50,938 nt of DNA from a virus (lineage: Duplodnaviria; Heunggongvirae; Uroviricota; Caudoviricetes). A program made the translations under genes and the position numbers. The notes beneath the pieces were generated by a model. It made no database searches. It was given only the letters and a program-made list of their open reading frames with translations, and had not been told where the DNA came from. The DNA is taken from IMG/VR virus record IMGVR_UViG_2636415959_000002; one strand, given 5' to 3'. Each line of letters starts with the position of its first letter. The stretch's first letter is position 1. Of this stretch, positions 20 to 18,293 are shown piece by piece.

Positions 20-1315
20 TTAATTTTTCATTGCTTCGTTATGGGGCATGGTTGGGGCAAACTCGCTTAACTGTGTATTTAACAAAGCTACCTGTGCATT
101 ATTGTTTTCAGACATCCATTTTCCGTATACCTTAAATACCATTTGCGCATCTGCATGGCCCATCTGGTTTGCTATAAATGCCGGGTTAGCACCAGCTGTC
201 AGCGACCAGCAGGCATAAGTATGTCTCGACTGATATGATTTTCGATGGCGGAGTCCGGCACGTTTTATCGCTGCGTCCCACATCTGCCTTATTGAGTCAA
301 CGGTAAAATGGTCACCATAATTTTTTACTCTCGCTGACACTTCAGGTTGAAAAACAAAGGTGCATTTTTGTTTTTCTGTTCTGCCATACTCTCTGAGGTG
401 AACATCAATGATATGCTCTTTGCTCAGTCTCGTTAATGTCATCTGACTCCGGAGAGCGTCGATTGCTGGCTTAATAAGATGAATGACCCGATTGGTTCCC
501 GCCTGTGTTTTTGGTACCGTGAAACGGTCTTTTGCTAAATTTCTCCTGATCATCATTGTTCCATTTTTCAGATCTATGTCCTCCCATCCAAGTGCACACA
601 GCTCACCAGGGCGAACGCCAGTATAAACAGAAACACACCATAAATTTTTTGCTTGCTGATTTCTGCACGCATCGATAAGACGGATAAATTCCTCCCGCGA
701 AAGAGGATCCGGAATGGTTCTTGATTCCTTTAATGGCGAGATCCCCTTAAACGGGTTATCTGCCAGGTAACCGTTATCAACACCAAACTGGAACACGGCG
801 TTAAGATTTGTCATGTAATTATTTACAGTTACAGCCGATCTCCCTGGTTGTGTAACAATATAGTTACTTTTGGGGATCTGGTATCCAGTCAGTAGCTCTT
901 TACGAACCTCCAGTAATTTTTCTTTATTAATCGATGAGGCAAGATTTTTTTCACCGATTATGCTCAGGATATTTTTGATGACGGCACGGTATGTGTTGAG
1001 TGATGTTTTTGCGACTTCAGTTTCTTTCAGTGCCAGAAATTTTTCAGCCAGTTCTTTTATGGTTAAATCTTGTCGGGCCTCACCAAATTTTTCCAGATTG
1101 CGTGAGGAGGGAAACTGTTTTGCATAGTCGAAAACACCAGTTTTTATTGCGTAACAAACAGAGGCGCGTAACTCACCTGCAACGCGCCTGTTTTTTGCTG
1201 TGTCAGGAACCCCCAGGTTTTCCCTGACTCTTACGCCTTTATAAACAAACCAGATACGTAATTTCCCTCCATGGTTTTCCACGCCTGTCGGATATTTCAT
1301 TTCAACTTCTCTCAT
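20..1315 (-). CDS. int: Tyrosine-type phage integrase
   Basis: 431-aa ORF; C-terminal region has the R...H..R...Y-type catalytic residues (HRKSYQSRHTYACW ... MGHADAQMVFKVYGKWM); sits beside an excisionase at the prophage edge. Likely true start at internal Met (MKYPTG, about 1300). Confidence 0.85.
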   Translation of the reverse strand: MREVEMKYPTGVENHGGKLRIWFVYKGVRVRENLGVPDTAKNRRVAGELRASVCYAIKTGVFDYAKQFPSSRNLEKFGEARQDLTIKELAEKFLALKETEVAKTSLNTYRAVIKNILSIIGEKNLASSINKEKLLEVRKELLTGYQIPKSNYIVTQPGRSAVTVNNYMTNLNAVFQFGVDNGYLADNPFKGISPLKESRTIPDPLSREEFIRLIDACRNQQAKNLWCVSVYTGVRPGELCALGWEDIDLKNGTMMIRRNLAKDRFTVPKTQAGTNRVIHLIKPAIDALRSQMTLTRLSKEHIIDVHLREYGRTEKQKCTFVFQPEVSARVKNYGDHFTVDSIRQMWDAAIKRAGLRHRKSYQSRHTYACWSLTAGANPAFIANQMGHADAQMVFKVYGKWMSENNNAQVALLNTQLSEFAPTMPHNEAMKN

Positions 1316-1334: not shown

Positions 1335-1586
1335 TCAAGTAAGATGACGTCTTGGTCTTGCTGATGCCTGGCGCTCAATCCAGCGATCAATTTCTTCCAG
1401 GTTGTAAAAGCATGGACTGTTATCCCATGGCATACCGTCATGAGCGACATGCTTATATTCCCTTCCTTCCATAAACGATTTTTCCCGGGCCTTTTTTAAC
1501 GTACCTTTTTTTATTCCTTTCAGCGCAATTAACTGCTCTTCGGATACCCATTTGCCGGGAGAGACAATCATGATTACTTCGCTCAT
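1335..1586 (-). CDS. xis: Excisionase-like small DNA-binding protein
   Basis: 83-aa basic ORF immediately upstream of the integrase on the same strand; position and size typical of Xis. Family assignment from context only. Confidence 0.55.
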   Translation of the reverse strand: MSEVIMIVSPGKWVSEEQLIALKGIKKGTLKKAREKSFMEGREYKHVAHDGMPWDNSPCFYNLEEIDRWIERQASARPRRHLT

Positions 1587-1658: not shown

Positions 1659-4130
1659 TTAAGAATCAGCCTGACTCGGGATCAGTTTTTGCCAGATAGC
1701 TGAAACGTATTTTGCCTGGTAACGGGCGTCATCAAGTGCATTATGGCGCTCACCTTCGAATGGAATAGCCGTTCTGGCATCGAAGTCTATGGCTTTCCCC
1801 AGCTCAACGATTGTGCGTACATCGCGATCGTTGTAGTAACGCCACGGGCAGGGGATTCCCTGCCGTTCGTATGAACGGCGCAAAATCGTGTTGTCGAAGT
1901 TGGCTCCATTTCCCCAGACATGAACAAAAAATTCACCGGAGTTTTCGTCGATAAATTCCCGCAATTGTAACAGTGCATCATCTAACGGGATTTCATCGGT
2001 CATAATGGCAGATTGCGCTTCGCGTGATTGCTTAAGCCACCATTTAATGGTGTCCCGATCAATGACTCCGCCAGCAGTTTCCAGATCGATAGTCTTACTA
2101 AATTCCGGTCCCATATCTCCGGTTTGCGGATCGAAAAATATTGCACCTATTGAGATGATCGGGGCATCAGGATTTTTTCCCATGGTTTCAAGGTCGATCA
2201 TTAGATGGTCACACGTCCTGCTGGTGGATGTGATTTCGTGATGACCGTTCACCTTAATTGAGTGATCTGCCGTCTCGCCAGTTTCATTATCGCTATTGTG
2301 ATGCTGATTGCCGCCAGTGTTCTCCTTGTGCTGATGCGCAGTGCCTTCCATTTCCTCCGGATCATTTTCCTGAACTTCAGGCTGATTCTCTCCATCGAAT
2401 ATTTCCTGGTATGTTGCGTCACCCATCACCGCACCACAATCAGGGCAGTTGCCGCCACCGCTATGACCGCAGGCGGTGCAGATCTTTTCCGGTTCCTGTT
2501 GCACTACTGGTTCAGGTTGTTTTGTTTCTGGCTCGTTTTGTTGCGTATTTGGGCTGTTTTGTTCCGCTTTCTGGTCGTTCTGTTCCGTTTCTTGCTGGTT
2601 CTGGTTCACAGAATCGCGGGTCTGGATCCCCTTAACCCATTTCGGATCATTCGGGTCGCTAATCCCTTCAACAAATTCACCACGTGATACTGCAAGCAGT
2701 TCATCGGCGTCAGGCTGGCTGATATTGGCTGCCTGCATAATTTTGTTTACTTCGTCAGCGGTAACTTTTACTGACCCTGGTTGTGCGGTCGTGTCAGATG
2801 CACCAGTATTTTGTTGTGAACCTGAGTATGTACCGTTTTTGCGGGCGAAATATTCTTCTTTCGTGATTTCAGTAGCCCCAGCAGACAGCGCCTTATCCAG
2901 ACCAGAAAGTTTGTTTGCGCGACCGTATTTTTCGCCATCCTTGTCGGTGAAGAGGAAGTAGAACGGCCCCTCACGTTCTACAGATGGTTCGACTTCCACT
3001 TTGCATTCGGTTTTTTCGTTGTCTGGAATTGCCGTTTCCACTGCATCAGTTTCTGGTACTGGCGACGAGAGAGTATCAGTTGCGCTCTGATTTGTTCCTT
3101 CATCTTCAAACACGCCCTTTGTAGTCAGGTATTCAGTAATGTATTTGTTCAGTGCCACAGGGTCTTTGTGAATGTCGATCGGACGTTCACGGACAAGGCC
3201 AAAAATAGTCTGGCGGTCGTAGCGAAGGGCATCAGGCTGTTTGCGCATTGATGCCGAGATACGCTTCCAGTCTTCGCGGTCGTTGTCGATAACTTCATTT
3301 TTTGCCCAGCGATGGATGCTGCCGTCAATGTTTCCGGCATCTACATCACCAGGCCAGAGAGCGTAGGCCAGTTCGTCATCCAGTGTTTTCCATGTCTGCT
3401 TGTATTCGCGATGAATGGCAGCAATGACCGGGCTGATTTTTCCTGTTGAATTTTCAGTGTACTGTTGATTGGCTCTGGCGCGGGCGAGATCAACAACAGA
3501 CGTGTATTTTCCGGTTTCCTTGCGTTCACCTTCGCGACGTTTTTTCCAGATGCGCATCTCTGCCTGAATTTCGGGCCATTTAGCACCAGGAATACATTTA
3601 TGCTTAACCCACCCAATGGCGTGCAACTTAAGCTCCGGATACATGGCGTTAACTTCTGGCATTTTCATCAACGCTTCAACGATATGTCCGTCGAATGTTG
3701 CCATGTCTTCCTGCAACAATTCCTGTGCGCTAATAACCATATCAACGGTGATGTTTTCACATGTGTCGAACTTAACCATGACAGCGTTCTGTACTTCAGG
3801 GGCCAGCTTGTCAAAAGTGACGTTCATCGGATCGGATTCAGTCTCAACCGGGACAAAAGAAGCAGACTCCTCATCCCAGCGGTTTTCCTGCATATATTCA
3901 GCATCCCATGAATCGAGGGCAGGGCGGGGTATGCCAGGTTTATCCTCGCAGACAATAAATTTATAAGCGCAGTCCTGAGCAGCCGGATAATGTTCCAGGA
4001 ACTGCCAGTGAAATTTTGCTCGAGCACGGCGTTCGTCGCCAGCTTCAATGGCTGTGGCTACAGCCACAGCGCCTTCTTCCCTTGTTGCCAGTTCGTCAGG
4101 AATAGCGGCGCAAATAAAGACTTTACTCAT
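1659..4130 (-). CDS. Prophage exonuclease with C-terminal DnaQ-like (DEDDh) 3'-5' exonuclease domain
   Basis: 823-aa ORF; C-terminal ~190 aa has Exo I (MIDLETMG), Exo II (HVWGNGANFD) and Exo III (HNALDDARYQ) motifs; long N-terminal region with a Cys4 ribbon (CTACGHSGGGNCPDCG) and a Gln/Glu-rich linker. Similar proteins are often labelled exodeoxyribonuclease VIII-like in prophages. Confidence 0.8.
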   Translation of the reverse strand: MSKVFICAAIPDELATREEGAVAVATAIEAGDERRARAKFHWQFLEHYPAAQDCAYKFIVCEDKPGIPRPALDSWDAEYMQENRWDEESASFVPVETESDPMNVTFDKLAPEVQNAVMVKFDTCENITVDMVISAQELLQEDMATFDGHIVEALMKMPEVNAMYPELKLHAIGWVKHKCIPGAKWPEIQAEMRIWKKRREGERKETGKYTSVVDLARARANQQYTENSTGKISPVIAAIHREYKQTWKTLDDELAYALWPGDVDAGNIDGSIHRWAKNEVIDNDREDWKRISASMRKQPDALRYDRQTIFGLVRERPIDIHKDPVALNKYITEYLTTKGVFEDEGTNQSATDTLSSPVPETDAVETAIPDNEKTECKVEVEPSVEREGPFYFLFTDKDGEKYGRANKLSGLDKALSAGATEITKEEYFARKNGTYSGSQQNTGASDTTAQPGSVKVTADEVNKIMQAANISQPDADELLAVSRGEFVEGISDPNDPKWVKGIQTRDSVNQNQQETEQNDQKAEQNSPNTQQNEPETKQPEPVVQQEPEKICTACGHSGGGNCPDCGAVMGDATYQEIFDGENQPEVQENDPEEMEGTAHQHKENTGGNQHHNSDNETGETADHSIKVNGHHEITSTSRTCDHLMIDLETMGKNPDAPIISIGAIFFDPQTGDMGPEFSKTIDLETAGGVIDRDTIKWWLKQSREAQSAIMTDEIPLDDALLQLREFIDENSGEFFVHVWGNGANFDNTILRRSYERQGIPCPWRYYNDRDVRTIVELGKAIDFDARTAIPFEGERHNALDDARYQAKYVSAIWQKLIPSQADS

Positions 4131-4223
4131 TTTGTTTTAACCTCATGACAGATTTAAGGATGAACAAATCCCTGCCATTGCTGGCATATAAGAATGAAAC
4201 CGGATATTTATTACGGAACTGTT

Positions 4224-4424
4224 TTAAAGACCTGCCGGGATTTCGATATTATCCTGGTGAATAACTTTATCGACCGGGTAACAGTTACCGGGAATTTTCT
4301 GTTCGGTTGCTGCAGTCACACACTCCTGCATTGTCCTGTGAACACTGACTGCAATATCAACTGGCTCTCCGGAAACAAGAAAAACTGTCAGAACAAGTGC
4401 AAATGCTGTATTCATTGCCAGCAT
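4224..4424 (-). CDS. Small protein with predicted N-terminal signal peptide or membrane anchor
   Basis: ORF 4224..4469; internal start MLAMNTAFALVLTVFLVSGEP gives a 66-aa protein with a hydrophobic leader and only a 13-nt overlap with the upstream ORF. Confidence 0.35.
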   Translation of the reverse strand: MLAMNTAFALVLTVFLVSGEPVDIAVSVHRTMQECVTAATEQKIPGNCYPVDKVIHQDNIEIPAGL

Positions 4425-4705
4425 CCTTTTTGTATCGGACGTAAACGGGCCAACATTGAAAGAATGCATATTTTATTTAATAGCTCCCGTTCGTGTTTTC
4501 TCTTGTTAATGGCATCTTCAGTAAATACAGGGTTACTGATAGTGACACCAATTTCAAAACAACCTTCAGACGTATTAACGTTTGGTAATAACGTTTTCAT
4601 TATCGCGTCCTCAACAATGAATTTTGTGATGCAGTGCCTGGTGCCTCCAGGTGACGTTAACCAGTTAACAATTAACGCCGGATACAGAGAATCCACCCAT
4701 AACAC
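4412..4705 (-). CDS. Hypothetical early-left operon protein
   Basis: 97-aa ORF on the same strand as the exonuclease and repressor-proximal genes; no recognisable motif; start uncertain. Confidence 0.3.
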   Translation of the reverse strand: MLWVDSLYPALIVNWLTSPGGTRHCITKFIVEDAIMKTLLPNVNTSEGCFEIGVTISNPVFTEDAINKRKHERELLNKICILSMLARLRPIQKGCWQ

Positions 4706-5086
4706 TGTTTTTGGTTTTAACTGTTCCGCGTGCGCTTAGCCGCATTCACCGCATCACAAAATTCACTTTAAAAACGGCGGCAGAGCAGTCACGGAGTAAA
4801 ACTGATACCGCCAAACGTCACCAGAAAATTGATAACAGAGGGCGTTGCAGCGGGGTTGTCACTTAAGCGTATGGTCAACCTGACAACTCGGTGTCCTCAA
4901 CGGGGAAGGAATAACCCCGCCATACTTACCGCCGCGCCATTTCGCGGGTTGCCACAACCGGAAGCGCACGGTCGAATTAAATTTAACGACACCGTACAGT
5001 GAGACGAACTTCGCCGTGCGCTTTCGTGTTGTGTGCCTGCTTTTAACCACGTCAGGCGAGGTGGTATCCTTAAAATCACCACAGTT

Positions 5087-5704
5087 TTAAGGATTCATTA
5101 AGCAATGTCGCAACCACCAATAAATCCGCTTAAGAACATGAAAATTGATTACTGGTATAAAGCGCTTACAGTTGTTGGCGCTGCGTTGTTTGTCTTTAAT
5201 GGAACGTCTTTTTTTGACAGATATCCCGTTGTTCCATTGGGTTTTTTGTCCTCCGGCATCTTTTTTATTGGTTTGGGGGAGTGGATTAATCACCCTCTCA
5301 AAGTGAGATTTATTGGTCCTGGAGTTTGGACTCGTGGATATAATCGTTCTTCGTGCGCACTCGGTATCATCTTCGACATACTTGGTTGTTTCCTGATTGT
5401 TACAGGAGTCGTCAAGTTCTTCTGATGTAAAACCGCAAATGGGGCACGTAACGGGAATTTTGAAAAGCGTTTCTCCGGGTTCCAGAACAAAATTTTCTGC
5501 GGTCTGATTTTGCTTCTCATATTTGTGCTCCGCGTCATTGTGAGAGCACATTCTTATTCTGAGTGCCTGTTTAAACTCACTGAAGCTGAGAGCTTCTTCG
5601 CCTTCGGCAAGACCTTCGAAGTATTCTTCGTAAGCCTTTTCCATGATTGTGTCGAAATCCATATCACTCACCTGAGTTTCTTTCCAGCCAGCGACGGGCA
5701 CCAT
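5087..5704 (-). CDS. Hypothetical acidic protein with CxxC motif (3' half may be non-coding)
   Basis: 205-aa ORF; N-terminal ~100 aa acidic with CPICGF; C-terminal half is low-complexity and exactly antisense to the plus-strand membrane ORF 5105..5425. Confidence 0.3.
   Translation of the reverse strand: MVPVAGWKETQVSDMDFDTIMEKAYEEYFEGLAEGEEALSFSEFKQALRIRMCSHNDAEHKYEKQNQTAENFVLEPGETLFKIPVTCPICGFTSEELDDSCNNQETTKYVEDDTECARRTIISTSPNSRTNKSHFERVINPLPQTNKKDAGGQKTQWNNGISVKKRRSIKDKQRSANNCKRFIPVINFHVLKRIYWWLRHCLMNP
5105..5425 (+). CDS. Small integral membrane protein (about 3 predicted TM segments)
   Basis: 106-aa ORF with three hydrophobic stretches (VVGAALFVFNGTSFF, LGFLSSGIFFIGLG, ALGIIFDILGCFLIVTGVV); AGGA upstream of the ATG; antisense to the 3' half of ORF 5087..5704, so only one of the two is likely real. 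Confidence 0.35.
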   Translation: MSQPPINPLKNMKIDYWYKALTVVGAALFVFNGTSFFDRYPVVPLGFLSSGIFFIGLGEWINHPLKVRFIGPGVWTRGYNRSSCALGIIFDILGCFLIVTGVVKFF

Positions 5705-5900
5705 TTTCGGTTTTAAACGTTTTGCTTTTGGTATACGTCATCGCGGTGAACGTACCGTCCTGGTTGGGGAACACGCCACATACCGGAGATTCGCTGTTGC
5801 CAAGATCGATAGTATCCATGCTGACCTCATTTCCCCTTAACGCCGGGGTAGCGGAACAAAAACCTGCTGCATAGTTATTAAAGTTGAACCCTGCCGTCAT
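5664..5900 (-). CDS. Hypothetical 78-aa protein, first gene of the leftward early operon
   Basis: ORF with GAGG about 9 nt upstream of the ATG; lies just downstream (leftward) of the operator-like repeats at about 6000-6045. Confidence 0.4.
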   Translation of the reverse strand: MTAGFNFNNYAAGFCSATPALRGNEVSMDTIDLGNSESPVCGVFPNQDGTFTAMTYTKSKTFKTENGARRWLERNSGE

Positions 5901-5994
5901 GTTCTTACGCCTCGGGCTGGCTACTTAACCCCTGACCACTGCCTGGTAACTCGAAGTATTGCCCTGCATTCTGTGGGGCGGGGTGGGTGGCAGG

Positions 5995-6045
5995 CATATA
6001 ATGTACTTTGCGTTCATTGTTGTAAAGTACTATTAGTACATTTTG
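5995..6045. promoter_or_regulatory. Operator-like repeats (OL-like) left of the repressor gene
   Basis: A/T-flanked GTAC motifs: aatgtacttt (~6001), aaagtactat and tagtacattt (~6024-6042) forming an imperfect palindrome; the same motif recurs in the repressor/cro intergenic region. Confidence 0.35.
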
Positions 6046-6116
6046 TGTGTAAAAAAATGAGATGGGATAAAGTGAAGCACAAACCCGGAGGAAGGCGCTA
6101 CCGGATTTATGCTGGT

Positions 6117-6536
6117 TTAAGAGGCTTTTTGTTTTTTCTTTCGTGCTAACTCTTCGTAAATTGCATTGTACTTCTGTTTTTTCTCTTCAAGAGTTTTTAA
6201 AAGTTCATCTGTCTCACTGTCAGGGAGCTCGTCCAGAAGGTCAATGATGATTTTTTGTCTTGGATTTAACTCCTGATAGAAACGTACCTGTCCACTTTCT
6301 TCTGTATCCTCTCCCAAAAGATAGGTTGGTGTTGTTCCTATTAGTGTTGCTAATTCCCTTAATTTCTCCCGGCGAGGAATTGTTTCGCCATTAAACCATT
6401 TGCTAACCGCTTTTGGTGTTAATTTCATTCGACGGGCAATTTCTGCCTGCCTTCCATGTTGTTCATAACCAGCGTTTTCACAGGCTAGCGCAAGCCTACT
6501 GGCGAACTCTTTACGCGCTTTATCTTCATGAACCAT
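6117..6536 (-). CDS. Prophage repressor, XRE-family HTH, non-LexA-like
   Basis: 139-aa ORF with N-terminal helix-turn-helix (QAEIARRMKLTPKAVSKWFNGETIP) and no S24 peptidase domain; divergent from a Cro-like gene. Confidence 0.75.
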   Translation of the reverse strand: MVHEDKARKEFASRLALACENAGYEQHGRQAEIARRMKLTPKAVSKWFNGETIPRREKLRELATLIGTTPTYLLGEDTEESGQVRFYQELNPRQKIIIDLLDELPDSETDELLKTLEEKKQKYNAIYEELARKKKQKAS

Positions 6537-6615
6537 AAGTTCAATGATATTCGCTCTTGAATGTACTGTCAGTTCTGTTATAGCATGTACTCAAAGTTCA
6601 CATTGTGAGGGTGAT
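6537..6615. promoter_or_regulatory. Divergent promoter/operator region (OR-like) between repressor and Cro-like gene
   Basis: 79-bp intergenic region with two copies of atgtact (~6561-6567 and ~6585-6591) matching the repeats at ~6000-6042. Confidence 0.5.
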
Positions 6616-6870
6616 ATGAACCAGAAAACACTTGAAGATGTAATCAAAACTGTTCGCGTTGCTGTTGTGGCCGACGTTTGTGGTGTCAGCCAAAGAGCAA
6701 TCTATAAATGGATGGATAACGGAAAATTGCCTCGCACAGAATATACCGGCGAAACAAATTACGCTGAAAAAATCGCTCTTGCATCAAACGGATTATTTTC
6801 TGCCGATGCAATTTTAACTATTGGCAGGAATAAAACTACTACGAAAAAGCTGATGGGAGTTGATTCATGA
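6616..6870 (+). CDS. Cro-like HTH DNA-binding protein (YdaS-like)
   Basis: 84 aa from internal start MNQKTLEDV with GAGGG RBS; HTH segment VADVCGVSQRAIYKWMDNGKLP; divergent from the repressor. Confidence 0.7.
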   Translation: MNQKTLEDVIKTVRVAVVADVCGVSQRAIYKWMDNGKLPRTEYTGETNYAEKIALASNGLFSADAILTIGRNKTTTKKLMGVDS

Positions 6871-7292
6871 AAATCAAGCATGAACACATCCGCATGGCGA
6901 TGAATGCCTGGGCGCATCCGGACGGCGAAAAAGTACCGGCTGCGAAAATTACCAAAGCGTATTTCGAGCTGGGAATGACGTTCCCGGAACTGTATGACGA
7001 CAGCCATCCGGAAGCCCTGGCTCGCAATACTCAGAAAATTTTCCGCTGGGTGGAGAAAGACACCCCTGATGCGGTTAAAAAAATTCAGGCGTTGTTACCA
7101 GCTATCGAAAAAGCAATGCCACCTCTGCTGGTGGCCCGAATGCGCAGTCATAGCTCAGCCTATTTTCGGGAACTAGTGGAGACGCGGGAACGACTGGTGA
7201 GAGACGCTGATGATTTTGTCGCAGTGGCGATCGCTGGTTTCAACCAGATGAATCGTGGTGGCCCTGCAGGAAATATTGTGGCTGTGCATTGA
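6867..7292 (+). CDS. ydaT: YdaT-like (CII-like) regulator of Rac-type prophages
   Basis: 141-aa ORF MKIKHEHIRMAMNAWAHPDGEKVPAAKITKAYFELGMTFPELYDD..., recalled as closely matching E. coli Rac YdaT; overlaps the stop of the Cro-like gene (operon coupling). Confidence 0.65.
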   Translation: MKIKHEHIRMAMNAWAHPDGEKVPAAKITKAYFELGMTFPELYDDSHPEALARNTQKIFRWVEKDTPDAVKKIQALLPAIEKAMPPLLVARMRSHSSAYFRELVETRERLVRDADDFVAVAIAGFNQMNRGGPAGNIVAVH

Positions 7293-7363
7293 CTCGCAAT
7301 ATTCATACCGGATCACTTCCGGCAATTTATGAGTAAAAAGATTCGGTATCAAAAGAGGTGAGT

Positions 7364-8434
7364 ATGGCTAACGCCTGGCTCAGATTATGGCATGACATGC
7401 CAAATGACCCTAAGTGGCGAACAATTGCCAGGGTGTCAGGGCAGCCAATTGCAACAGTGATGGCAGTGTATATCCACCTCTTGGTGAGCGCGTCACGAAA
7501 TGTCACGCGAGGTCACATTGATGTCACGACAGAAGATTTGGCAAGTGCGCTCGACGTGACAGAAGAGGTAATTGATTCAATTTTGCAGACGATGCAGGGG
7601 CGGGTACTTGATGGTGATTTAATCACTGGATGGGAAAAACGCCAGGTGCTTAAAGAGGACAATGGCAATATTTCGCAAACCGCAAAATCTCCTGCAGAGC
7701 GCAAGAGGGCGCAGCGAGAGAGGGAAAGAAAGCGGGAACAAAATGGCGATTGTCACGGCGCGTCACGAAATGTCACGCACATGTCACGACGAGTCACGAC
7801 AGATAAAGATACAGATAAAGATACAGATCAAGAAGATCAAAACACTATGGTCCATGGCGTAAAAAACGCCACGAACCAGGCAGGGGATGTTCAGACCGTC
7901 AATCTTGGTCAGCCAGCAGGCACGACACCGGAAGCCGATTCAGCGTATGCGCTGAAAGCCGATTCGGGCGCTGTGCAGCAGGTGATGACCGCAAGGCCGG
8001 AGCAATCACACCAACTGCAGCAGCCCGAAGCCGATTCCGCCATTCAGCGGGAAGCCGATCGGGTAGTCCCGGAAAACACCGGGCAGTCTGTGGGACGAGT
8101 GGATTATCCGGATGTGTTCGAACAGGTCTGGCGGGAGTACCCGTTGCGTGCCGGAGCAAACCCGAAGAAATCCGCTTTCAGTGCCTGGAAGGCCAGATTA
8201 CGCGAGGGGGTGCCACCAGAGGCCATGCTGGATGGCGTGAGGCGTTACGCAAGATACTTGGCGGCTACCGGGAAAACGGGAACGGAATTTGTTCAGCGAG
8301 CGACGACGTTTTTTGGACCGGACCGGAATTTTGAGAACCCCTGGTTGCTCCCGGTAAGCGGCACGAACAACCAGCGTTGTGTGAATCATATTTCTGAACC
8401 GGATAACGAAATTCCGCCGGGCTTCAGGGGGTAA
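7364..8434 (+). CDS. ydaU: Replication initiation protein, YdaU/DUF1376-like
   Basis: 356 aa from ATG with AAGAGG RBS; N-terminus MANAWLRLWHDMPNDPKWRTIARVSGQPI typical of the YdaU family; iteron arrays lie inside the coding sequence. Confidence 0.65.
   Translation: MANAWLRLWHDMPNDPKWRTIARVSGQPIATVMAVYIHLLVSASRNVTRGHIDVTTEDLASALDVTEEVIDSILQTMQGRVLDGDLITGWEKRQVLKEDNGNISQTAKSPAERKRAQRERERKREQNGDCHGASRNVTHMSRRVTTDKDTDKDTDQEDQNTMVHGVKNATNQAGDVQTVNLGQPAGTTPEADSAYALKADSGAVQQVMTARPEQSHQLQQPEADSAIQREADRVVPENTGQSVGRVDYPDVFEQVWREYPLRAGANPKKSAFSAWKARLREGVPPEAMLDGVRRYARYLAATGKTGTEFVQRATTFFGPDRNFENPWLLPVSGTNNQRCVNHISEPDNEIPPGFRG
7490..7560 (+). repeat. Iteron cluster 1: GTCACG/GTCACA hexamers at about 10-bp phasing
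   Basis: gtcacg at ~7492, 7502, 7523, gtcaca at ~7512, and an inverted copy cgtgac at ~7555. Confidence 0.5.
7750..7832 (+). repeat. Iteron cluster 2 (five GTCACG at 10-11 bp spacing) followed by a duplicated 12-mer, putative replication origin
   Basis: gtcacg at ~7752, 7762, 7772, 7783, 7793; then agataaagatac x2 (~7801-7824) and an A-rich tail; the 19-mer cgtcacgaaatgtcacgc is shared with cluster 1. Confidence 0.5.
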
Positions 8435-8474
8435 GTGTTAATTTCTGGTCATGAGGTAATTTTCAGGAGGGCTT

Positions 8475-8897
8475 GTGGCAAAAGTTTTTACACAAGAAGA
8501 GCGGGAAAAAATTAAAGGGCAGGTTGTTGAACTCGTACGCCAGAGTGGGCGCGAGACGTTAAGACAACTGGAAACTAAAACTGGGGCAACAAAATATCTG
8601 ATGAACGTTCTGGCCAGAGAGCTGGTTGCCAGTGGCGATGTATACAACTCTGGTTACGGGTTATTCCCGTCTGAACAGGCGCGTAAGGACTGGCAAAATG
8701 CCCGTAAAAAGCTCTCAAGGGCAAAGCTGAAGAAACCATCTGCGGTTGATCCGGACCTTATCTGGTCATTACCTGATGGAGAAATACGTCGTTACGACAG
8801 GCGTCATAATATGATTTGTACTGAGTGTCGTAAAAGCGAAGTTATGCAGCGCATATTGTCGTTTTATCAGGGGGATGTTCGGTATTTATTGAAGTGA
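8475..8897 (+). CDS. Hypothetical protein (GTG start)
   Basis: 140-aa ORF with AGGAGG shortly upstream of GTG; basic; CxxC near the C-terminus; no family recognised. Confidence 0.45.
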   Translation: MAKVFTQEEREKIKGQVVELVRQSGRETLRQLETKTGATKYLMNVLARELVASGDVYNSGYGLFPSEQARKDWQNARKKLSRAKLKKPSAVDPDLIWSLPDGEIRRYDRRHNMICTECRKSEVMQRILSFYQGDVRYLLK

Positions 8898-9159
8898 CGA
8901 GATTAAAGTGCATTAGTTCAGATGCAAATTGACATTTTGTGGCACAGGGTAGAGCTAGCGTGGTTGTCCGCTTTGTGCCAACAGCGGACATTATGGAAGG
9001 TCAGAGTTAAAGATTAAAATGGGATGCTGTGTGTTTTCTCCAGGTTTTGCTCTATACCTTTCGGGATACTCCACCGACAGAATACGAAAATCAACATTAT
9101 CAACGGCTCGAAGTGTCTAGATTATCCATGGCAATTCATGGGAAATCCCATCCAACGGC

Positions 9160-10551
9160 TTATGCTTCATGTTGCTTTTTGAGATCGCTTCTAGCATAGC
9201 TCCACTCAATAATGTTGTCGGGTCGTTGCTGATCGAAAAGGATACGGGATTCAATACCATTACCTAAAAAGCTGGTATTCCCATCTACGTAAGAAGCTAT
9301 CCCTTGTGAACCAACACGAAGAATATTTTCTAATGGCTGCTTTGTTCTTGCTGCATCGCTAAGGAGATATAAACCCGGGTACGTTTTGTTAGCACGGTGA
9401 AAAAAAAGTTCATTGTCAAAACACATGACGATGATTATTTGTCCCGACATGAGATCGGAGAGCATTTCAGTTGGCAGATGCAAACTCATAAATGGTCGAG
9501 ACAAAGGGTCAAAGAATGAATCATTTATATTCACAACAGGGCTTTTTATACCGAGACTATCCATCCATCCATTGAAGGCAACAAAGCCCATTTCAGAATC
9601 ACGGTACATACCTAAGAACAAACATTCATCAATAGTATCAATTGCCCAATTTTTTCCTCCGCGAATAATCTCCCACATTTTAACTAAGCGGTGGGTATAA
9701 AATTCAGACGGATGATCTATCTCATTGATTTTAACTTTAGACTGATGAAAGTTGTCAAAGCCCTCGCCAGTATTAATCGCCTCCAGAACATTCATGCCAC
9801 GAATGATTTGCCTTTTTATGCGATTAAATTGCTTAACATCATTATCAGGCATATTGTTAATGAAGTTTTCTTCAAAGTGCGGACATTCTGAGATAACAGA
9901 AAATTCAGCAGCTTCATAAAGCTCATTATTCTTTTCACCTGTTTTAACTTCCACGAGCTGGAAGCCATCCAGTAGATTAAAGGTGACTAAATCTCCCACA
10001 TGAACAAATGTGCTCATGTCAGAGACAATCGCTACGGAGTGTTTGTCCTGGTTGATAAGATCGGCTGCGACCATAGAATCAATTATGTTATCTTCTGATA
10101 GATTGTCATTGCTTGCATTAATAGGTAAACGCCGCAAACTAGAGTGTTCTTCATCAAGAATGCTCCAAATTATTGAGTCAATACAACGGCGAAGAATAAG
10201 AATTTCAAATTTTTTTAAACTTATTTCATCAATACACTTTTCTTTATTTTCTTTATCCTTGTTTCGATGGTGCTCTTTTTTTTCAGTTTCCAATCTTTTT
10301 ATATCTCTCAGCCGAATAATAATCTCAAAAGATATGATTTTTTGTGAGTCTTTCCAATTTTTGAGACAGGTTTCATACTCTGCAAGAAAATCCTCATCAT
10401 TGGAAGGTAGTTCTTGAATTGGATTCCCTCCCCTTATCATTTTGGCAAGTGCATGCATTAAAGATACATAATGAGGCGATAAAATTGTCCAAAACTTCCT
10501 AAACGGTTTGTACTTTTCAAGAAAAGTTGACTCATCAGTATAATTCATCAT
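9160..10551 (-). CDS. Uncharacterised 463-aa protein, downstream partner of the AbiH-like gene; possible PD-(D/E)xK nuclease-like core
   Basis: ORF 9160..10557; likely ATG at 10551 (MMNYTDEST) with GAGG upstream; AT-rich codon usage; segment FVHVGDLVTFNLLDGFQLVEVKTGEKN fits D-x13-E-x-K; no Walker motif or other signature recognised. Confidence 0.6.
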   Translation of the reverse strand: MMNYTDESTFLEKYKPFRKFWTILSPHYVSLMHALAKMIRGGNPIQELPSNDEDFLAEYETCLKNWKDSQKIISFEIIIRLRDIKRLETEKKEHHRNKDKENKEKCIDEISLKKFEILILRRCIDSIIWSILDEEHSSLRRLPINASNDNLSEDNIIDSMVAADLINQDKHSVAIVSDMSTFVHVGDLVTFNLLDGFQLVEVKTGEKNNELYEAAEFSVISECPHFEENFINNMPDNDVKQFNRIKRQIIRGMNVLEAINTGEGFDNFHQSKVKINEIDHPSEFYTHRLVKMWEIIRGGKNWAIDTIDECLFLGMYRDSEMGFVAFNGWMDSLGIKSPVVNINDSFFDPLSRPFMSLHLPTEMLSDLMSGQIIIVMCFDNELFFHRANKTYPGLYLLSDAARTKQPLENILRVGSQGIASYVDGNTSFLGNGIESRILFDQQRPDNIIEWSYARSDLKKQHEA

Positions 10552-10640
10552 AACCAAACCTCATTCCTCTTATCTATTTTCCTCAAGGTATAAAATACCA
10601 GCCTTTTTTACATAATTATAGTTATAATATGAAGTCTCAT

Positions 10641-11510
10641 TCAGATATCTTCATACTGTACGTAAGAAATATTTGAGCCTCTGATACCATAATCTTCTAA
10701 ACTGCCTGATTTTTTCTCACCTCTATATAAAGCAACTATCCATCGAGCATTTTCTTGGATGCTTTTATTTATTTCAGTAAAGTATTCACCGTCAACTTCG
10801 GCGAGCGAGTGGCCTAAAACGATGACCTCGTCCACATTTTTAAGCGATGAGAAAAAAACGTTTTCTTCTTTAATTATGTCTTCGCTGGGCTTGAATGTAT
10901 TACCGAAGTATTCGTTTATTCTGTCGTATGCCTCTGCTATTCTTGTATCTTGATCCGGTCCTATATATGGATTTAGTGACTTTTCCACCCTAAAACTATG
11001 ACCAAGTATGAGATCGTCATCGTAACTACAATTGCCGTGAATATGTATGATTTGCTCGTCTGGAACGGCATAGATCTGCTGCAAGGTATTTGTATAATTA
11101 AATGAAAAATAGATGCTTTCTCTTGGTATGGGCGGGATGTATTGCTTAGGATTGTAAGCATCGGCTATGTTAATCCCTTTAACCCAATCAGCGAATTGCT
11201 CCTTCAAACGAGCTGACAGCATTTGTGTGATTTTATTTACTTCATATTGGTAATCGTGATGATAAGCATCGCTCCAATCATCGGTATTGTATGAAGCCAA
11301 AAATATCTCACTGTTTTGAAGGATAAGCTCATAATCAATTTCACCTAAAGCATTTTCTAACTCATTCCACTCGTCCCCAGCAGGAATGTATTCTTCTATC
11401 GCGTCATATAGATCTTGGTCATTTTTTTCTACATACGACTTAAAGTGCTTGTATCCTGTTGGTAAGCCATGACGCATGTCAAATCCATTTCCTATTATGT
11501 AAAGCCTCAT
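10641..11510 (-). CDS. AbiH-family (abortive infection) protein
   Basis: 289 aa from internal ATG (MRLYIIGNGFDMRHGLPTGYKHF) with AAGGGA RBS; the IIGNGFD-x-HGL-x-T-Y motif is the N-terminal signature I recall for the AbiH family; AT-rich. Confidence 0.7.
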   Translation of the reverse strand: MRLYIIGNGFDMRHGLPTGYKHFKSYVEKNDQDLYDAIEEYIPAGDEWNELENALGEIDYELILQNSEIFLASYNTDDWSDAYHHDYQYEVNKITQMLSARLKEQFADWVKGINIADAYNPKQYIPPIPRESIYFSFNYTNTLQQIYAVPDEQIIHIHGNCSYDDDLILGHSFRVEKSLNPYIGPDQDTRIAEAYDRINEYFGNTFKPSEDIIKEENVFFSSLKNVDEVIVLGHSLAEVDGEYFTEINKSIQENARWIVALYRGEKKSGSLEDYGIRGSNISYVQYEDI

Positions 11511-11968
11511 TGTTTTTCCCTTAGTCGAATTGTATAAAAATACTAACATGGCCTGCTCCACGTTGACTACTATCCCCTCCTTTGAGTAATGCCTTCATCA
11601 GATGTAACAACATTTGCGAGCTTCCACAGTTCGCTCAAAGCGGACTAGAAGGTTAGCTTGCGTCGGACTTGGCGTATTTAAAGAAGTGCTGGTGGAGACT
11701 GGTTGTTGTGTTCCATTTCTACAGAACAAAATCACAGAAACTATACCCAATAGTTATATTGAATCAATGATGAGACAGCCTCATATTTATCAGGACTGGT
11801 GTACGTCCAATACAGGAGGTTGTCGTGCTGGTTCTCAAATGTGCGCTAGCTATTGCGGCTGTAATGGCAATTTATTGTCTTGCTGTTGTTCTTACGGATC
11901 GCCTTTCTGATTGATTTTATATTGGCGAGGTGACGTGAGTTAAGTAGAATTGCTGCGGGTGCTTGAGG

Positions 11969-12004
11969 CTATCTGCCTCAGGCATGAACACCAAAGGCAG
12001 ATAG
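11969..12004 (+). promoter_or_regulatory. Perfect 10-bp inverted repeat in the hokD 5' leader (probable mRNA fold)
   Basis: ctatctgcct ... aggcagatag separated by a 16-nt loop, about 120 nt upstream of the hokD ATG. Confidence 0.3.
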
Positions 12005-12125
12005 AGAAAAGCCCCAGTTAACATTACGCGTCCTGCAAGACGCTTAACATTAATCTGAGGCCAATTTCATGCTAGACACATGTAGGTTAGCCTCTTACGT
12101 GCCGAAAGGCAAGGAGAAGCAGGCT

Positions 12126-12281
12126 ATGAAGCAGCAAAAGGCGATGTTAATCGCCCTGATCGTCATCTGTTTAACCGTCATAGTGACGGCACTGGTAACG
12201 AGGAAAGACCTCTGCGAGGTACGAATCCGAACCGGCCAGACGGAGGTCGCTGTCTTCACAGCTTACGAACCTGAGGAGTAA
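12126..12281 (+). CDS. hokD: Hok-family type I toxin (HokD/RelF-like), 51 aa
   Basis: MKQQKAMLIALIVICLTVIVTALVTRKDLCEVRIRTGQTEVAVFTAYEPEE: single TM helix plus conserved Hok C-terminal motif; AGGAG RBS; in-frame upstream extension (ORF from 12069) is reminiscent of mok. Confidence 0.85.
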   Translation: MKQQKAMLIALIVICLTVIVTALVTRKDLCEVRIRTGQTEVAVFTAYEPEE

Positions 12282-12288
12282 GAGACCA

Positions 12289-12374
12289 GGCGAGGGAGAA
12301 ATCCCTCGCCACCTCTGATGTGTCAGGCATCCTCAATGCACCCGCACTTAACCCGCTTCGGCGGGTTTATTTTA
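12289..12374 (+). terminator. Two 3' hairpins after hokD, the second followed by a T-run (rho-independent terminator)
   Basis: ggcgaggga-gaaa-tccctcgcc (~12289-12310) and acccgc-ttcg-gcgggt followed by ttatttta (~12351-12374). Confidence 0.45.
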
Positions 12375-12628
12375 TCTGTAAATATTTTTATAAAAATAAT
12401 GCCCACACACAGCATAAAACAAAAAGTATCACAGATAAAAAAGGAGCGTAATGTGCAGATTTGTTGTTTTCCATATTTACTCACTTTAACATAATCAATA
12501 TTGATATGGTTGTTGTTTTGGTGGTTTCAAACGAGATGTTATGGTGATCTGGTAAAATTGCATAACATTAAAATTTAATTTATCTAATCGCTTTTAATAA
12601 TAAGCGTTGTGTTTATCCCAACAATCTG

Positions 12629-13018
12629 TTGTTTGACTTTTATTCCATTAATGTAGGGGCTTTACACTGGAACCAGTTTATTTATACTTTATACGCCAGC
12701 CTGAACAACTGGCACCTGCTGCGCCAGCAGAGACAACCGATGGCGCACGATACCAAATTACACAATTCTGATGATTCTGCCGTCTTTGCCAGCAGGTGCG
12801 GACGGCGTTTTCATGCATTCAAATCGGACTGGTTCCAGCATCCACCATGCACTGAAGAGCAGGCTGAATGGATAATTCAGTGTTACCGCAGGCGCGGATA
12901 CGAGGTTAAAAAAGCCCTTAGCCTCGACTACCGTCACTGGATAATCTCAGTCAGATTGCCTTACTCCGAACGCCCACCGCGTCCGTCCCGTACATTCCAG
13001 CAACGCCTCTGGAGGTAA
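12629..13018 (+). CDS. Hypothetical protein (position corresponds to rem of Qin-type prophages)
   Basis: 129-aa ORF ending 2 nt before the ydfU-like start; true start may be an internal Met; no motif recognised. Confidence 0.4.
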   Translation: MFDFYSINVGALHWNQFIYTLYASLNNWHLLRQQRQPMAHDTKLHNSDDSAVFASRCGRRFHAFKSDWFQHPPCTEEQAEWIIQCYRRRGYEVKKALSLDYRHWIISVRLPYSERPPRPSRTFQQRLWR

Positions 13019-13019
13019 C

Positions 13020-14069
13020 GTGCGGGTATTACTTCGACCTGTTCTGGTACCGGAACTCGGGCTGGTGGTCGTTAAGCCGGGCCGTGAATCCATGCCGGTA
13101 TTCCACAATACCCGGGTACTGGTGGAGCCGGAACCGAAAAGCATGCGTAATCTGCCGTCCGGGGTCGTTCCTGCCGTTCGCCAGCCGCTGGTGGAAGACA
13201 AAACATTGCTGCCGTTTTTCAGTAACACACGGGTAATTCGTGCTGCTGGTGGTGCTGGTGCATTGTCTGACTGGCTGTTGCGCCATATTAAATCCTGCCA
13301 GTGGCCACACGGCGATTATCATCACAGCGAAACCGTTATTCACCGATATGGTACCGGCGCAATGGTGTTGTGCTGGCACTGCGACAACCAGCTGCGTGAC
13401 CAGACATCCGAATCACTCGAGCAACTTGCTCATCAAAACCTGTCAGCATGGATGATTGACGTCATCGGTCACGCAATAAGCGGTACGCAGGAGCGTGAAT
13501 TATCTCTGGCTGAATTATCCTGGTGGGCGGTCCGCAATCAGCTGGCGGACGCGCTACCGGAAGCGGTATTACGTCGCTCGCTGGGATTACCAGCGGAAAA
13601 AATCTGCTCGGTGTACCGCGAAAGCGACATCGTACCGGGAGAGCAGACCGCCACCAGCATATTGAAACAGCGCACAAAAAATCTTGCACCGTTGCCTCAC
13701 GCCCACCAGCAACAAAACCCATCACAGGAAAAGACGGTGGTAAGCATCACCGTTGATCCAGAGTCTCCGGAATCTTTCATGAAGCTGCCTAAACGTCACC
13801 GGTGGGTTAAGGAGAAATACACACGCTGGGTTAAGACACAGCCGTGTGCTTGCTGCGGTATGCCAGCCGACGATCCGCATCATCTGATTGGTCACGGGCA
13901 GGGCGGAATGGGAACAAAAGCACATGATCTCTTTGTGTTGCCTTTGTGCAGAAAGCATCACAACGAGCTGCATACGGATACAGTGGCATTTGAAGAGAAG
14001 TATGGCTCCCAACTGGAGCTGATATTTCGTTTTATCGATCGCGCGCTGGCAATTGGCGTACTGGCGTAA
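13020..14069 (+). CDS. ydfU: DUF968/YdfU-like protein with Cys/His-rich C-terminal motif
   Basis: 349-aa ORF (GTG start after GGAGG); C-terminal CACCGMPADDPHHLIGHGQGG...CRKHHNELH; size and position match YdfU of Qin-type prophages (recalled). Confidence 0.65.
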   Translation: MRVLLRPVLVPELGLVVVKPGRESMPVFHNTRVLVEPEPKSMRNLPSGVVPAVRQPLVEDKTLLPFFSNTRVIRAAGGAGALSDWLLRHIKSCQWPHGDYHHSETVIHRYGTGAMVLCWHCDNQLRDQTSESLEQLAHQNLSAWMIDVIGHAISGTQERELSLAELSWWAVRNQLADALPEAVLRRSLGLPAEKICSVYRESDIVPGEQTATSILKQRTKNLAPLPHAHQQQNPSQEKTVVSITVDPESPESFMKLPKRHRWVKEKYTRWVKTQPCACCGMPADDPHHLIGHGQGGMGTKAHDLFVLPLCRKHHNELHTDTVAFEEKYGSQLELIFRFIDRALAIGVLA

Positions 14070-14082
14070 GTGGAGAACGAGC

Positions 14083-14835
14083 ATGAACCTTGAAGCCTTA
14101 CCAAAATATTACTCCCCAAAATCTCCAAAATTGAGCGATGACGCTCCAGCGACAGGCACCGGTTGTTTAACAATTACGGATGTAATGGCAGCGCAGGGGA
14201 TGGTGCAGTCGAAAGCACCACTTGGGTTGGCCTTATTTCTGGCAAAAGTTGGTGTTCAGGACCCTCAGTTTGCGATTGAAGGCCTGCTAAATTACGCGAT
14301 GGCACTGGATAACCCGACATTGAACAAATTGAGTGAAGAAATCCGGTTACAGATTATTCCTTACCTCGTGAGTTTTGCCTTTGCTGATTACTCCAGGTCT
14401 GCGGCAAGTAAGGCTCGCTGTGAGCATTGTTCAGGTACGGGATTTTATAATGTATTGCGCGAAGTGGTGAAACACTACAGACGCGGGGAATCTGTAATCA
14501 AGGAAGAATGGGTGAAGGAACTATGTCAGCATTGCCATGGTAAGGGCGAAGCCAGCACAGCGTGCAGAGGGTGTAAGGGTAAAGGGATTGTTCTGGATGA
14601 AAAAAGAACCCGGTTTCATGGCGTACCGGTATATAAGATTTGTGGGCGTTGTAATGGAAACCGGTTTAGTCGTTTACCGACCACGCTGGCACGACGTCAT
14701 GTCCAGAAGCTGGTACCAGACCTGACCGATTATCAGTGGTATAAGGGGTATGCGGACGTCATTGGTAAACTGGTAACAAAGTGCTGGCAGGAAGAAGCAT
14801 ACGCGGAAGCGCAATTGAGGAAGGTGACGAGATAA
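14083..14835 (+). CDS. quuQ: Late-gene antitermination protein Q (phage 21/82-type zinc-finger Q)
   Basis: 250 aa from ATG with GGAG RBS; multiple CxxC pairs (CEHCSGTGFYN, CQHCHGKGE, CRGCKGKG, CGRCNG); located upstream of the lysis cassette. Confidence 0.75.
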   Translation: MNLEALPKYYSPKSPKLSDDAPATGTGCLTITDVMAAQGMVQSKAPLGLALFLAKVGVQDPQFAIEGLLNYAMALDNPTLNKLSEEIRLQIIPYLVSFAFADYSRSAASKARCEHCSGTGFYNVLREVVKHYRRGESVIKEEWVKELCQHCHGKGEASTACRGCKGKGIVLDEKRTRFHGVPVYKICGRCNGNRFSRLPTTLARRHVQKLVPDLTDYQWYKGYADVIGKLVTKCWQEEAYAEAQLRKVTR

Positions 14836-14943
14836 ATGATTTTTGCTGAAGATGGCGACATGATGTTTGCATTTTTCAAAAAATATGGATAAAATTTTTT
14901 CAACGATGGGCTTTGTATACCCGACGTTAAGAAAAAGTAGAAA

Positions 14944-14966
14944 ACCCGCTGATGAGCGGGTTTTGT
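14944..14966 (+). terminator. Rho-independent terminator about 110 bp downstream of Q (tR'-like)
   Basis: cccgc-tgatga-gcggg stem-loop followed by ttttgtgcttt. Confidence 0.45.
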
Positions 14967-15256
14967 GCTTTAAATGGGGCAATGGTAATGTTGAATCTCA
15001 TCCCGGGACTCATGTCTGTTAACTTATTATTTAGCTGGTGACTTGGTTATTTGCCTGATGTTTAAAATGTTTTCTTCCAGTACAATGTCCCTAAACACAA
15101 TGAGTCTGCTTATTATATTATTAGCAGAGCTATTACGGCCAAAGTACAGCATAAGCTTTTAAAGCCAATCAACCAGTCATCAAGACAGACGGGGTTATTC
15201 ATAAAAACTCTCCATGTGTGATCCGATGGGGCCTGAAATTAAAGCTTTAATATAGC

Positions 15257-15469
15257 TCATGAAAGGTAAACATTGGCAGCTGAAGGGCCACGCAGACCAT
15301 TTATCCGGCAAAATTCCACGCGTAATCCGGTGGTAATTTCTTCTGCATCGCGGAGATTGAGCGCTGAAACATGGAGCTGGACATCGATACGACCATCGGA
15401 TGGGGTGATAAGACCCTTGCCGCTTTTGCCGTCAAAGGTTTTGACAATTCCTGTCATTTTACGGGACAA
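15257..15469 (-). CDS. cspF: Cold-shock-domain protein paralogue (CspF/CspH-like)
   Basis: 70 aa, [27 protein letters not shown]...; CSD fold with a degenerate RNP motif as in CspF/CspH. Confidence 0.8.
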
Positions 15470-15769
15470 AAAAATTCCTTAATACTGATAACTTGGCGCA
15501 CTATACACACGTTCCTGAAGAAAGCTATAGTTTTTTGATGGGGTTGAAGATGGCTGGATGTCTAAAATAAACATTGCTTCATATGTTCAACTATGCGTTA
15601 ATGATTGCGTCGGTTTGAAGAACAGACGATATACGAAGTAGTTTACTAAAGCAGTTCTCATTTCAGGTGTTATTCACTTATTCCTTCTTTGAGTCTCTCC
15701 AATTAAGTACGAAGTCGTTTCTGTTATGCAAACCATTTATGCCGAAAGGCTCAAGTTAAGGAATGTAGA

Positions 15770-15985
15770 ATGTCAAATAAAATGACTGGTTTAGTAAAAT
15801 GGTTTAACGCTGATAAAGGTTTCGGCTTTATTTCTCCTGTTGATGGTAGTAAAGATGTGTTTGTGCATTTTTCTGCGATTCAGAATGATAATTATCGAAC
15901 CTTATTTGAAGGTCAAAAGGTTACCTTCTCTATAGAGAGTGGTGCTAAAGGTCCTGCAGCAGCAAATGTCATCATTACTGATTAA
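15770..15985 (+). CDS. cspB: Cold-shock protein CspB-like
   Basis: 71 aa, [38 protein letters not shown]... with canonical RNP1/RNP2 motifs. Confidence 0.85.

Positions 15986-17265: not shown

Positions 17266-18293
<1,028 letters not shown>

Follow-up and report, generated by a model that had tools for sequence, protein, structure and literature searches.

A RecE-like protein with a DexA/EcD-type exonuclease domain in the early-left operon of a Qin/mEp460-type prophage

The Gene and Its Operon

The window analysed here is the whole 50,938-nucleotide stretch of a Caudoviricetes record (IMG/VR virus record IMGVR_UViG_2636415959_000002), a lambdoid prophage of the Qin/mEp460 type in prophage order. 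The gene in question encodes a protein of 823 residues (1659..4130, minus strand) and begins with an ATG that has GAGG 10 nt upstream; its current Pfam architecture is YdfE_N, YdfE_C and Rv2179c-like. A sequence-only reading of the gene had seen in its product a DnaQ-like exonuclease preceded by some 600 residues of unclear nature, with no recombinase partner. The comparisons described below identify the protein as a relative of RecE in which the nuclease has been exchanged, and they bear on whether it works with an annealase or with the recombination machinery of the host.

The exonuclease gene is the last of a dicBF-type early-left operon, where it lies just upstream of xis and int. The order on the minus strand is a DicA-like repressor, ydfA, an open reading frame (ORF) of 205 residues, the DicF small RNA, dicB, ydfD, the exonuclease gene, xis and int. 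A promoter-like site (5998-6026) lies at the head of the operon, just downstream of the gene for the repressor, which is a helix-turn-helix protein (6117..6536). The unannotated ORF of 191-205 residues (5087-5704) and the DicF RNA (4775..4826; Rfam 72.5 bits), which marks an operon of this type, are followed by the genes for the cell-division inhibitor DicB (4412..4600) and for YdfD (DUF1482; 4224..4415), the latter immediately upstream of the exonuclease gene. The excisionase gene xis (DUF1233; 1335..1586) is directly downstream, and the tyrosine integrase gene int (20..1315) ends the region; all these features are on the minus strand. A scan from dicB to the exonuclease gene showed no excess of terminator-like sites, which, along with the promoter-like site near the repressor, is consistent with the co-transcription with dicF, dicB and ydfD that we infer. 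Between the stop codon of the exonuclease gene and xis lies an 8-bp inverted repeat, GCCGGTTG(N14)CAACCGGC, at 1617-1646 on the minus strand; it has no T run after it and was not called as a terminator, and it could be a site of RNA processing or retroregulation.

The gene is already known, through the Pfam families named for YdfE, through a published class of phages (see below) and through its presence in most E. coli genomes. The pseudogene ydfE of the K-12 Qin prophage is its broken form: residues 1-256 of YdfE are 99% identical to residues 1-256 of the intact protein, and the YdfE-named Pfam families span residues 1 to about 340, but the K-12 copy is cut by IS2E ahead of the linker and the exonuclease domain. 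At a coverage of at least 80%, the gene is found in 3532 of 5426 complete E. coli genomes (about 65%), with a median of two matching places per genome and up to 10, alongside many lambdoid prophages. Plaque-forming phages, among them mEp460, Tritos and HannyBb, carry it too, and the exact protein is recorded in 899 blocks of an assembly collection; many of the database entries for the family are fragments.

With phages Tritos and HannyBb as references, the ratio of nonsynonymous to synonymous substitution (dN/dS) lies at 0.0-0.18 for the folded domains (0.0-0.11 for the N-terminal ones) and at 0.45-0.67 for two linkers. The gene is thus under purifying selection and is no chance ORF. In the same comparison, dS itself varies about 100-fold along the gene, from 0.007-0.05 (residues 1-245) and 0.02 (residues 631-823) to 0.6 (residues 346-440), which marks the gene itself as a recombination mosaic.

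The C-Terminal DEDDh Exonuclease Domain

The last part of the protein (residues 642-813; 1692..2207, minus strand) is a DEDDh 3'-5' exonuclease domain of the DexA/EcD/Rv2179c-like kind. It matches Pfam PF16473 (Rv2179c-like) with an E-value of 4.6e-67 and 225.6 bits against a cut-off of 27, and there is a weak match to RNase_T as well. The only related solved structure found by sequence is that of T4 DexA (PDB 8kel/8ken; E 6e-6). In a four-sequence MAFFT alignment, the five catalytic residues D646, E648, D746, H796 and D801 are in register with D7, E9, D119, H186 and D191 of DexA, so that the DnaQ-like domain proposed by the sequence-only reading is borne out. On these grounds, the domain is predicted to have 3'-5' DNA exonuclease activity. 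The PD-(D/E)XK nuclease of RecE gave no Pfam match (DUF3799) here, and searches with RecE residues 588-866 by phmmer and tblastn found nothing in the window.

How far can properties be carried over from the relatives that have been studied? T4 DexA belongs to the same DEDDh fold family; however, its identity to residues 642-813 is only about 23-28%, and it is a stand-alone protein of 227 residues with extra loops and without a RecE-like region. It attacks 3' DNA ends, both when host DNA is broken down and in intron homing (PMC12153337). Its residues for the recognition of 5-hydroxymethylcytosine (5hmC) are not conserved in the 823-residue protein. Rv2179c of Mycobacterium tuberculosis, the founder of PF16473, shares the Pfam family, but it is a stand-alone bacterial protein without a phage context, named by Pfam as a 3'-5' exoribonuclease, and its substrate is not transferable.

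The closest experimentally studied relative of the domain is EcD (the "HREX" exonuclease), an E. coli homologue of DexA, with 38% identity over 174 aligned positions (residues 640-823) and the catalytic residues kept. EcD is a stand-alone protein of 189 residues that degrades DNA containing 5hmC, leaves unmodified DNA uncut and gives protection against T4 (NAR 2025, PMC12153337). The recognition of 5hmC is tied to W152 and D169 in DexA and to W132 and E145 in EcD, while the tetramer-forming D90 of DexA is A78 in EcD (PMC12153337). In the protein studied here, the residues at the two recognition positions are Y766 and K779, the second being less certain since the alignment is gapped around 779, and the tetramer-forming aspartate that EcD has lost is kept as D718. 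Because these three residues differ, the 5hmC specificity of EcD cannot be transferred.

The EcD sequence was recovered in IMG/VR contigs by means of its forward primer, as a protein of 189 residues that starts with MIDTETLGNG and has A78 as published. The loci are L048:4173-4742 and others in L033, L038, L051 and L054. Between the published reverse primer, which gave one unrelated match, and these loci there is a difference of one extra A near the stop codon.

As a stand-alone gene the DEDDh domain is common, with matches in 1627 phage records. A version of 190 residues in phage PhiR47_1 (L009:5998-6570) and Yersinia phage YeP1 (L018:4998-5570) is 55-60% identical to residues 640-823 and occupies the same int-proximal operon position. 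The PhiR47_1 gene bears the annotation "exodeoxyribonuclease VIII", which seems to have been carried over from the fusion proteins.

The N-Terminal Region and Its Relationship to RecE

The sequence-only reading had treated the N-terminal 600 residues or so as uncharacterised, and had named a match to a RecE-like domain as the result that would overturn it; such matches were obtained by three routes. BLASTP aligned residues 262-622 with residues 278-588 of K-12 RecE (38% identity, E 5e-63), and residues 439-621, ribbon and linker included, with RecE of Rac-SA53 (59% identity). The NCBIfam RecE model PRK09709 aligned residues 246-625 with model positions 271-602 at 270.3 bits, far under its equivalog cut-off of 1269 bits. 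Finally, hhalign, given a 30-sequence alignment of residues 1-245 and a 10-sequence alignment of RecE 1-277, matched residues 14-206 to RecE 11-223 with a probability of 96% (E 1.9e-9). The idea that the likeness to RecE comes merely from a low-complexity linker was rejected, since the helical core and the N-terminal module match too.

The similarity ends at RecE residue 588. This residue is inside the nuclease domain of RecE (564-866), and the E588 fragment, which serves as RecE in ET recombination, begins with it (PMC11257833; PMC11611040). Sequence comparison thus shows residues 1-622 to be collinear with RecE 1-588, as far as the edge of the nuclease; beyond it, the RecE nuclease has been exchanged for the DEDDh domain.

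Along the protein, the first module (N1, Pfam YdfE_N; residues 1-225; 3456..4130, minus strand) has an alpha/beta domain (residues 1-100) and a helical domain (residues 105-225), with values of the AlphaFold2 confidence score (pLDDT) mostly above 90; its homology to the N-terminal region of RecE (PF06630, Exonuc_VIII) is remote. It is followed by a helical core (N2, Pfam YdfE_C; residues 246-340; 3111..3395, minus strand), the only module common to all relatives including RecE. Both YdfE_N (PF27430) and YdfE_C (PF27432) are precomputed Pfam matches for the exact protein. A small beta-hairpin/helix domain (GPFY...GRANK; residues 386-436; 2823..2975, minus strand) is found in only some members of the family and is missing from Rac RecE. 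Next comes a conserved short motif, RGEFVEGISDPNDPKW (residues 464-500; 2631..2741, minus strand), which lies inside a disordered linker and gives a weak match to Pfam DUF4072. Its consensus, G-E-[FY]-[VI]-[ED]-G-I-S-[DN], is present in RecE and in relatives of all three C-terminal types (see below), and it resembles a docking peptide for some partner.

The linker proper (residues 500-640; 2211..2633, minus strand) is rich in Glu, Gln, Asn and His, is likely disordered and is under relaxed constraint (dN/dS about 0.45-0.49). It contains the Cys4 ribbon CTACGHSGGGNCPDCG (residues 551-566; 2433..2480, minus strand), with cysteines C551, C554, C562 and C565. The ribbon and the acidic Gln/Glu-rich linker had been noticed by the sequence-only reading, correctly, but both prove to be features of RecE; the ribbon, which K-12 RecE also has at residues 517-531, is not family-wide.

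The structure of residues 1-440 was predicted by AlphaFold2 with a 59-sequence alignment; a single-sequence model of the whole protein (pLDDT 36) was discarded. The mean pLDDT is 87.5, with 343 residues at or above 90. The predicted folds are alpha/beta (1-100), helical (105-225), helical (246-340) and a small beta-hairpin/helix (388-432), with predicted disorder at 224-245 and 346-379. These domains are predicted with confidence, but the model gave no informative structural match.

The comparison with RecE (exonuclease VIII of Rac) is thus one of both likeness and difference. The two proteins have homologous and collinear N-terminal regions of about 600 residues, with the DUF4072 motif, the Cys4 ribbon and the acidic linker, and both genes lie at the int-proximal end of a lambdoid early-left operon. 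However, the catalytic domains are unrelated, that of RecE being a PD-(D/E)XK nuclease of 5'-3' polarity and that of the 823-residue protein a DEDDh nuclease expected to be 3'-5', and it is xis rather than recT that directly follows the gene studied here. The database label "exodeoxyribonuclease VIII" is misleading for this gene because its catalytic domain is unrelated, recT is missing and the score against the RecE model is below the cut-off. According to a 2023 review, the N-terminal domain of RecE has no known function and yet full-length RecE improves linear-linear recombination (PMC11611040); the function of the present protein was called unclear in the sequence-only reading, and this still holds.

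A Modular Family and Its Neighbours

The family to which the protein belongs is small: only 185 clusters (at 50% identity) match residues 1-440 among 1.84 billion representatives. When the members of at least 450 residues are sorted by segment content, the N-terminus is of either the YdfE_N or the RecE (PF06630) type, and the YdfE_C core is common to all. The C-terminus, counted by representatives, is a DEDDh domain in 11, a RecE-type nuclease in 12 and a domain of about 270 residues without a nuclease signature in 18, a further 18 being partial or unassigned. Every pairing of N-terminal type with nuclease type occurs.

What could the domain of about 270 residues be? It matches stand-alone Pseudomonas and phage proteins of about 243 residues with an E-value of about 1e-65, some of which are named by NCBI as members of the Rad52/Rad22 family. 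Four of the stand-alone proteins exceed the PF04098 (Rad52_Rad22) cut-off of 20.3 bits, with 23.0-28.3 bits; the match of the fusion domain, on the signature helix, reaches 17.7 bits (E 0.0036). When profiles were searched against PDB sequences, RAD52 was not reached, so the assignment rests on the Pfam matches of the stand-alone relatives. That the fusion domain is a Rad52-like annealase is, at the level of sequence, moderately supported.

The absence of an adjacent annealase, which the sequence-only reading had reported for this gene, is confirmed and extended. In the window, tblastn with two types of RecT, with lambda Bet and with the Rad52-like domain gave no match, nor did lambda Gam. Pfam searches of the early-region ORFs and precomputed Pfam lists for six genomic copies revealed no annealase, Erf, Sak4 and Gp2.5 being covered by the Pfam lists only, without dedicated seeds. 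For the early-left operon, these lists contain only DUF1391, DicB, DUF1482 and the exonuclease, with no gene for an annealase, an SSB or an anti-RecBCD protein.

The neighbours of the three kinds of fusion follow distinct patterns. In the five loci of the DEDDh kind (the window, P0140, P0231, P0237 and P0254), the next genes are Exc/xis and then int, with no annealase within about 6 kb; the DEDDh-type relatives are thus without such a partner, as had been noticed for the gene in the window. In the loci with the RecE-type nuclease (Rac of K-12, Rac-SA53, P0129 and P0182), RecT is directly downstream. In the loci with the Rad52-like domain (P0128, at L025:5001-7337; P0168, at L029:6001-8148; and P0288, at L010:7682-9467, frameshifted), the next gene is Sipho_Gp157, followed by Exc-Int, and no exonuclease was found; the P0128 locus has KilR and a weak Gam match upstream. 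The sample is small, but within it there are no exceptions. Fusions of all three C-terminal kinds always occupy the same operon position, and this, together with the presence of a shared N-terminal module on both nuclease and annealase proteins, ties the module to recombination.

Chi Sites and the Tritos Class

The window contains nine Chi sites (GCTGGTGG) where 1.8 are expected, a number reached in none of 100 shuffles. Seven, at 2220, 7127, 11688, 13061, 13187, 13245 and 17684 (span 2220..17691), are on the plus strand, and two more, at 13651 and 13703, are on the minus strand. Five cluster at 13.0-13.7 kb within a DUF968/ydfU-like gene, and one (2220-2227) is within the exonuclease gene. 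The plus strand, which holds the seven, is the late-gene strand, and by the established rule a Chi site on it is oriented to act on RecBCD that comes in at the right cos end.

An analysis of 325 lambdoid phages (Genome Research 2025, PMC12315714) describes, in its Table 1, a class (class B) of four phages with Tritos as the prototype; they encode a nuclease, are without annealase, SSB and anti-RecBCD functions, and have 7-21 top-strand Chi sites. The authors proposed that Chi-rich phages without a recombination system of their own rely on the RecBCD of the host, and they remarked that enzymes of this kind are generally inhibitory to recombination (PMC12315714). They also listed "RecE-2" proteins, without a nuclease domain or a known role (PMC12315714); these are probably the fusions to the Rad52-like domain.

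The window prophage matches this nuclease-only class in gene content. Tritos has the 823-residue gene, at 94% nucleotide identity, in the same dicB-ydfD-exo-xis-int layout. The class has at least four Chi sites on the top strand, and the window, with 7/2 (top/bottom), stands at the lower limit of the published values, which run from 21/6 to 7/2. The window prophage differs from the class in nothing of substance, although the published work lists the class without dissecting the protein or probing its role. Tritos and HannyBb, which share this layout, are viable.

Other Features of the Prophage

An AbiH abortive-infection gene (10641-11561; Pfam E 8e-69, PADLOC E 1.8e-27) adjoins an ORF of 465 residues (9160-10557) that has no Pfam or PADLOC match. 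The two form a moron-like insert (9160-11561, minus strand) with the replication and nin regions on either side; in strain STLEFF_47, the slot is occupied by a gene of the AIPR family. The sok antitoxin RNA of a hok/sok module and two cspA-type 5'-untranslated-region thermoregulators lie at 11957-12131, 15609-16001 and 18510-18895, the thermoregulators implying two cold-shock-protein genes in the late-regulatory/lysis region. A Pin-like serine invertase (Resolvase plus HTH_7; 46935-47525, minus strand) adjoins the tail-fibre region, as it does in Tritos and HannyBb, and its position suggests an invertible tail-fibre segment.

What the Enzyme May Do

The preferred interpretation, to which we give a probability of about one half, is that a RecE-family early-left protein into which a DexA/EcD-type DEDDh domain has been swapped is most likely a 3'-5' end-trimming accessory to the RecBCD-Chi-RecA pathway of the host. 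The operon dicF-dicB-ydfD-exonuclease would be transcribed once the DicA-type repressor is lifted, that is, on induction or in lytic growth. The C-terminal domain would then strip nucleotides off 3' DNA ends, while the RecE-like N-terminal module would position the nuclease, probably through contacts with proteins or DNA ends. The protein would not be one half of an exonuclease-plus-annealase recombinase; instead, the phage would depend on host recombination, with the enzyme trimming ends or flaps in a manner comparable to that of DexA in the processing of double-strand breaks in T4. A reliance on RecBCD, Chi and RecA appears the most likely because the phage has neither an annealase nor an inhibitor of RecBCD and because its Chi sites are in the active orientation. 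It is also favoured by the contrast between the DEDDh-type loci, which lack an annealase, and the RecE-nuclease loci, which are always followed by RecT.

Could the protein instead serve in anti-phage defence, as a nuclease of the HREX type that degrades the 5hmC DNA of superinfecting T-even phages and so protects the lysogen or the induced cell? The activity of EcD, its protection against T4 and its 38% identity to residues 640-823 speak for this (PMC12153337), and K-12 is said to be without DexA homologues (PMC12153337), which fits the truncation of ydfE there. DicB, encoded in the same operon, is reported to protect against phage (PMC6832061), and the window has AbiH and hok/sok as well. However, the 5hmC-recognition positions hold Y766 and K779, D718 is kept, and the gene belongs to a lytic operon under repressor control rather than occupying the position of a moron expressed in the lysogen. 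Moreover, no model in PADLOC (2023, which predates HREX) matches the protein, and a RecE-like region of 620 residues would be left unexplained. The features that define a nuclease of this type are thus lacking, and we consider such a role unlikely.

Another mechanism, slightly less probable than defence, would be scavenging or the degradation of host DNA, RNA or short oligonucleotides in lytic growth, after the pattern of T4 DexA acting on host DNA or of the RNase activity of Rv2179c, with the RecE-like region as no more than an inherited appendage. The scavenging of host DNA by T4 DexA is documented (PMC12153337; T4 annotation), PF16473 takes its name from a 3'-5' exoribonuclease, and the domain is widespread as a stand-alone protein. 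The N-terminal domains are no dead weight, however, given that they are under strong purifying selection and have been retained in several independent fusions. In addition, no temperate lambdoid phage is known to degrade host DNA for its nucleotides.

It is more doubtful still that the protein is the exonuclease of a genuine two-component recombinase and obtains its annealase in trans, either as the RecT or Bet of another prophage or as a Rad52-like fusion of its own family. Such a partner might be at hand, since E. coli genomes often hold more than one copy of the gene and many lambdoid prophages, and since the N-terminal module is also found on annealase-bearing proteins; annealing can, in principle, use 5' tails. 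On the other hand, the free-living Tritos and HannyBb, which have no annealase, cannot count on one in each host, and none of the five DEDDh lineages has one within 6 kb, whereas every form with the RecE nuclease has RecT directly downstream. Phage annealases load on the 3' tails made by 5'-3' exonucleases, as is established for Red and RecET (PMC11611040), and a 3'-5' enzyme would destroy these tails. Finally, that the gene is a decaying and functionless remnant, as the IS2-cut K-12 copy and the many fragmentary entries might suggest, is very improbable given an intact ORF in thousands of genomes and in plaque-forming phages, purifying selection and the retention of the catalytic residues.

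Implications for the RecE/YdfE Family

A broader reading, which is possible but which we put forward only tentatively, sees in the N-terminal region of RecE and YdfE a portable recombination module, which lambdoid phages join interchangeably to a 5'-3' exonuclease (RecE), to a 3'-5' exonuclease (the protein studied here) or to a Rad52-type annealase (probably the "RecE-2" proteins). Its shared function might be, for example, the tethering of ends or docking to the host by way of the GEFVEGISD motif, and the DEDDh form might be an end processor of reverse polarity tuned to RecBCD and Chi. If this were true, there would be a testable function for the N-terminal two-thirds of RecE, which boosts linear-linear recombineering.

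For the annotation of these genes, the immediate consequence is that a widely distributed gene is mislabelled "exodeoxyribonuclease VIII", though its product lacks the RecE nuclease and probably has the opposite polarity. Nature has, in this protein, performed a domain-swap experiment on the N-terminal region through which RecE aids linear-linear recombineering. The new angle of most use is the further occurrence of the RecE/YdfE N-terminal module in fusions to what appears to be a Rad52-like annealase: these fusions suggest that the module serves recombination generally, and they could yield new parts for recombineering.

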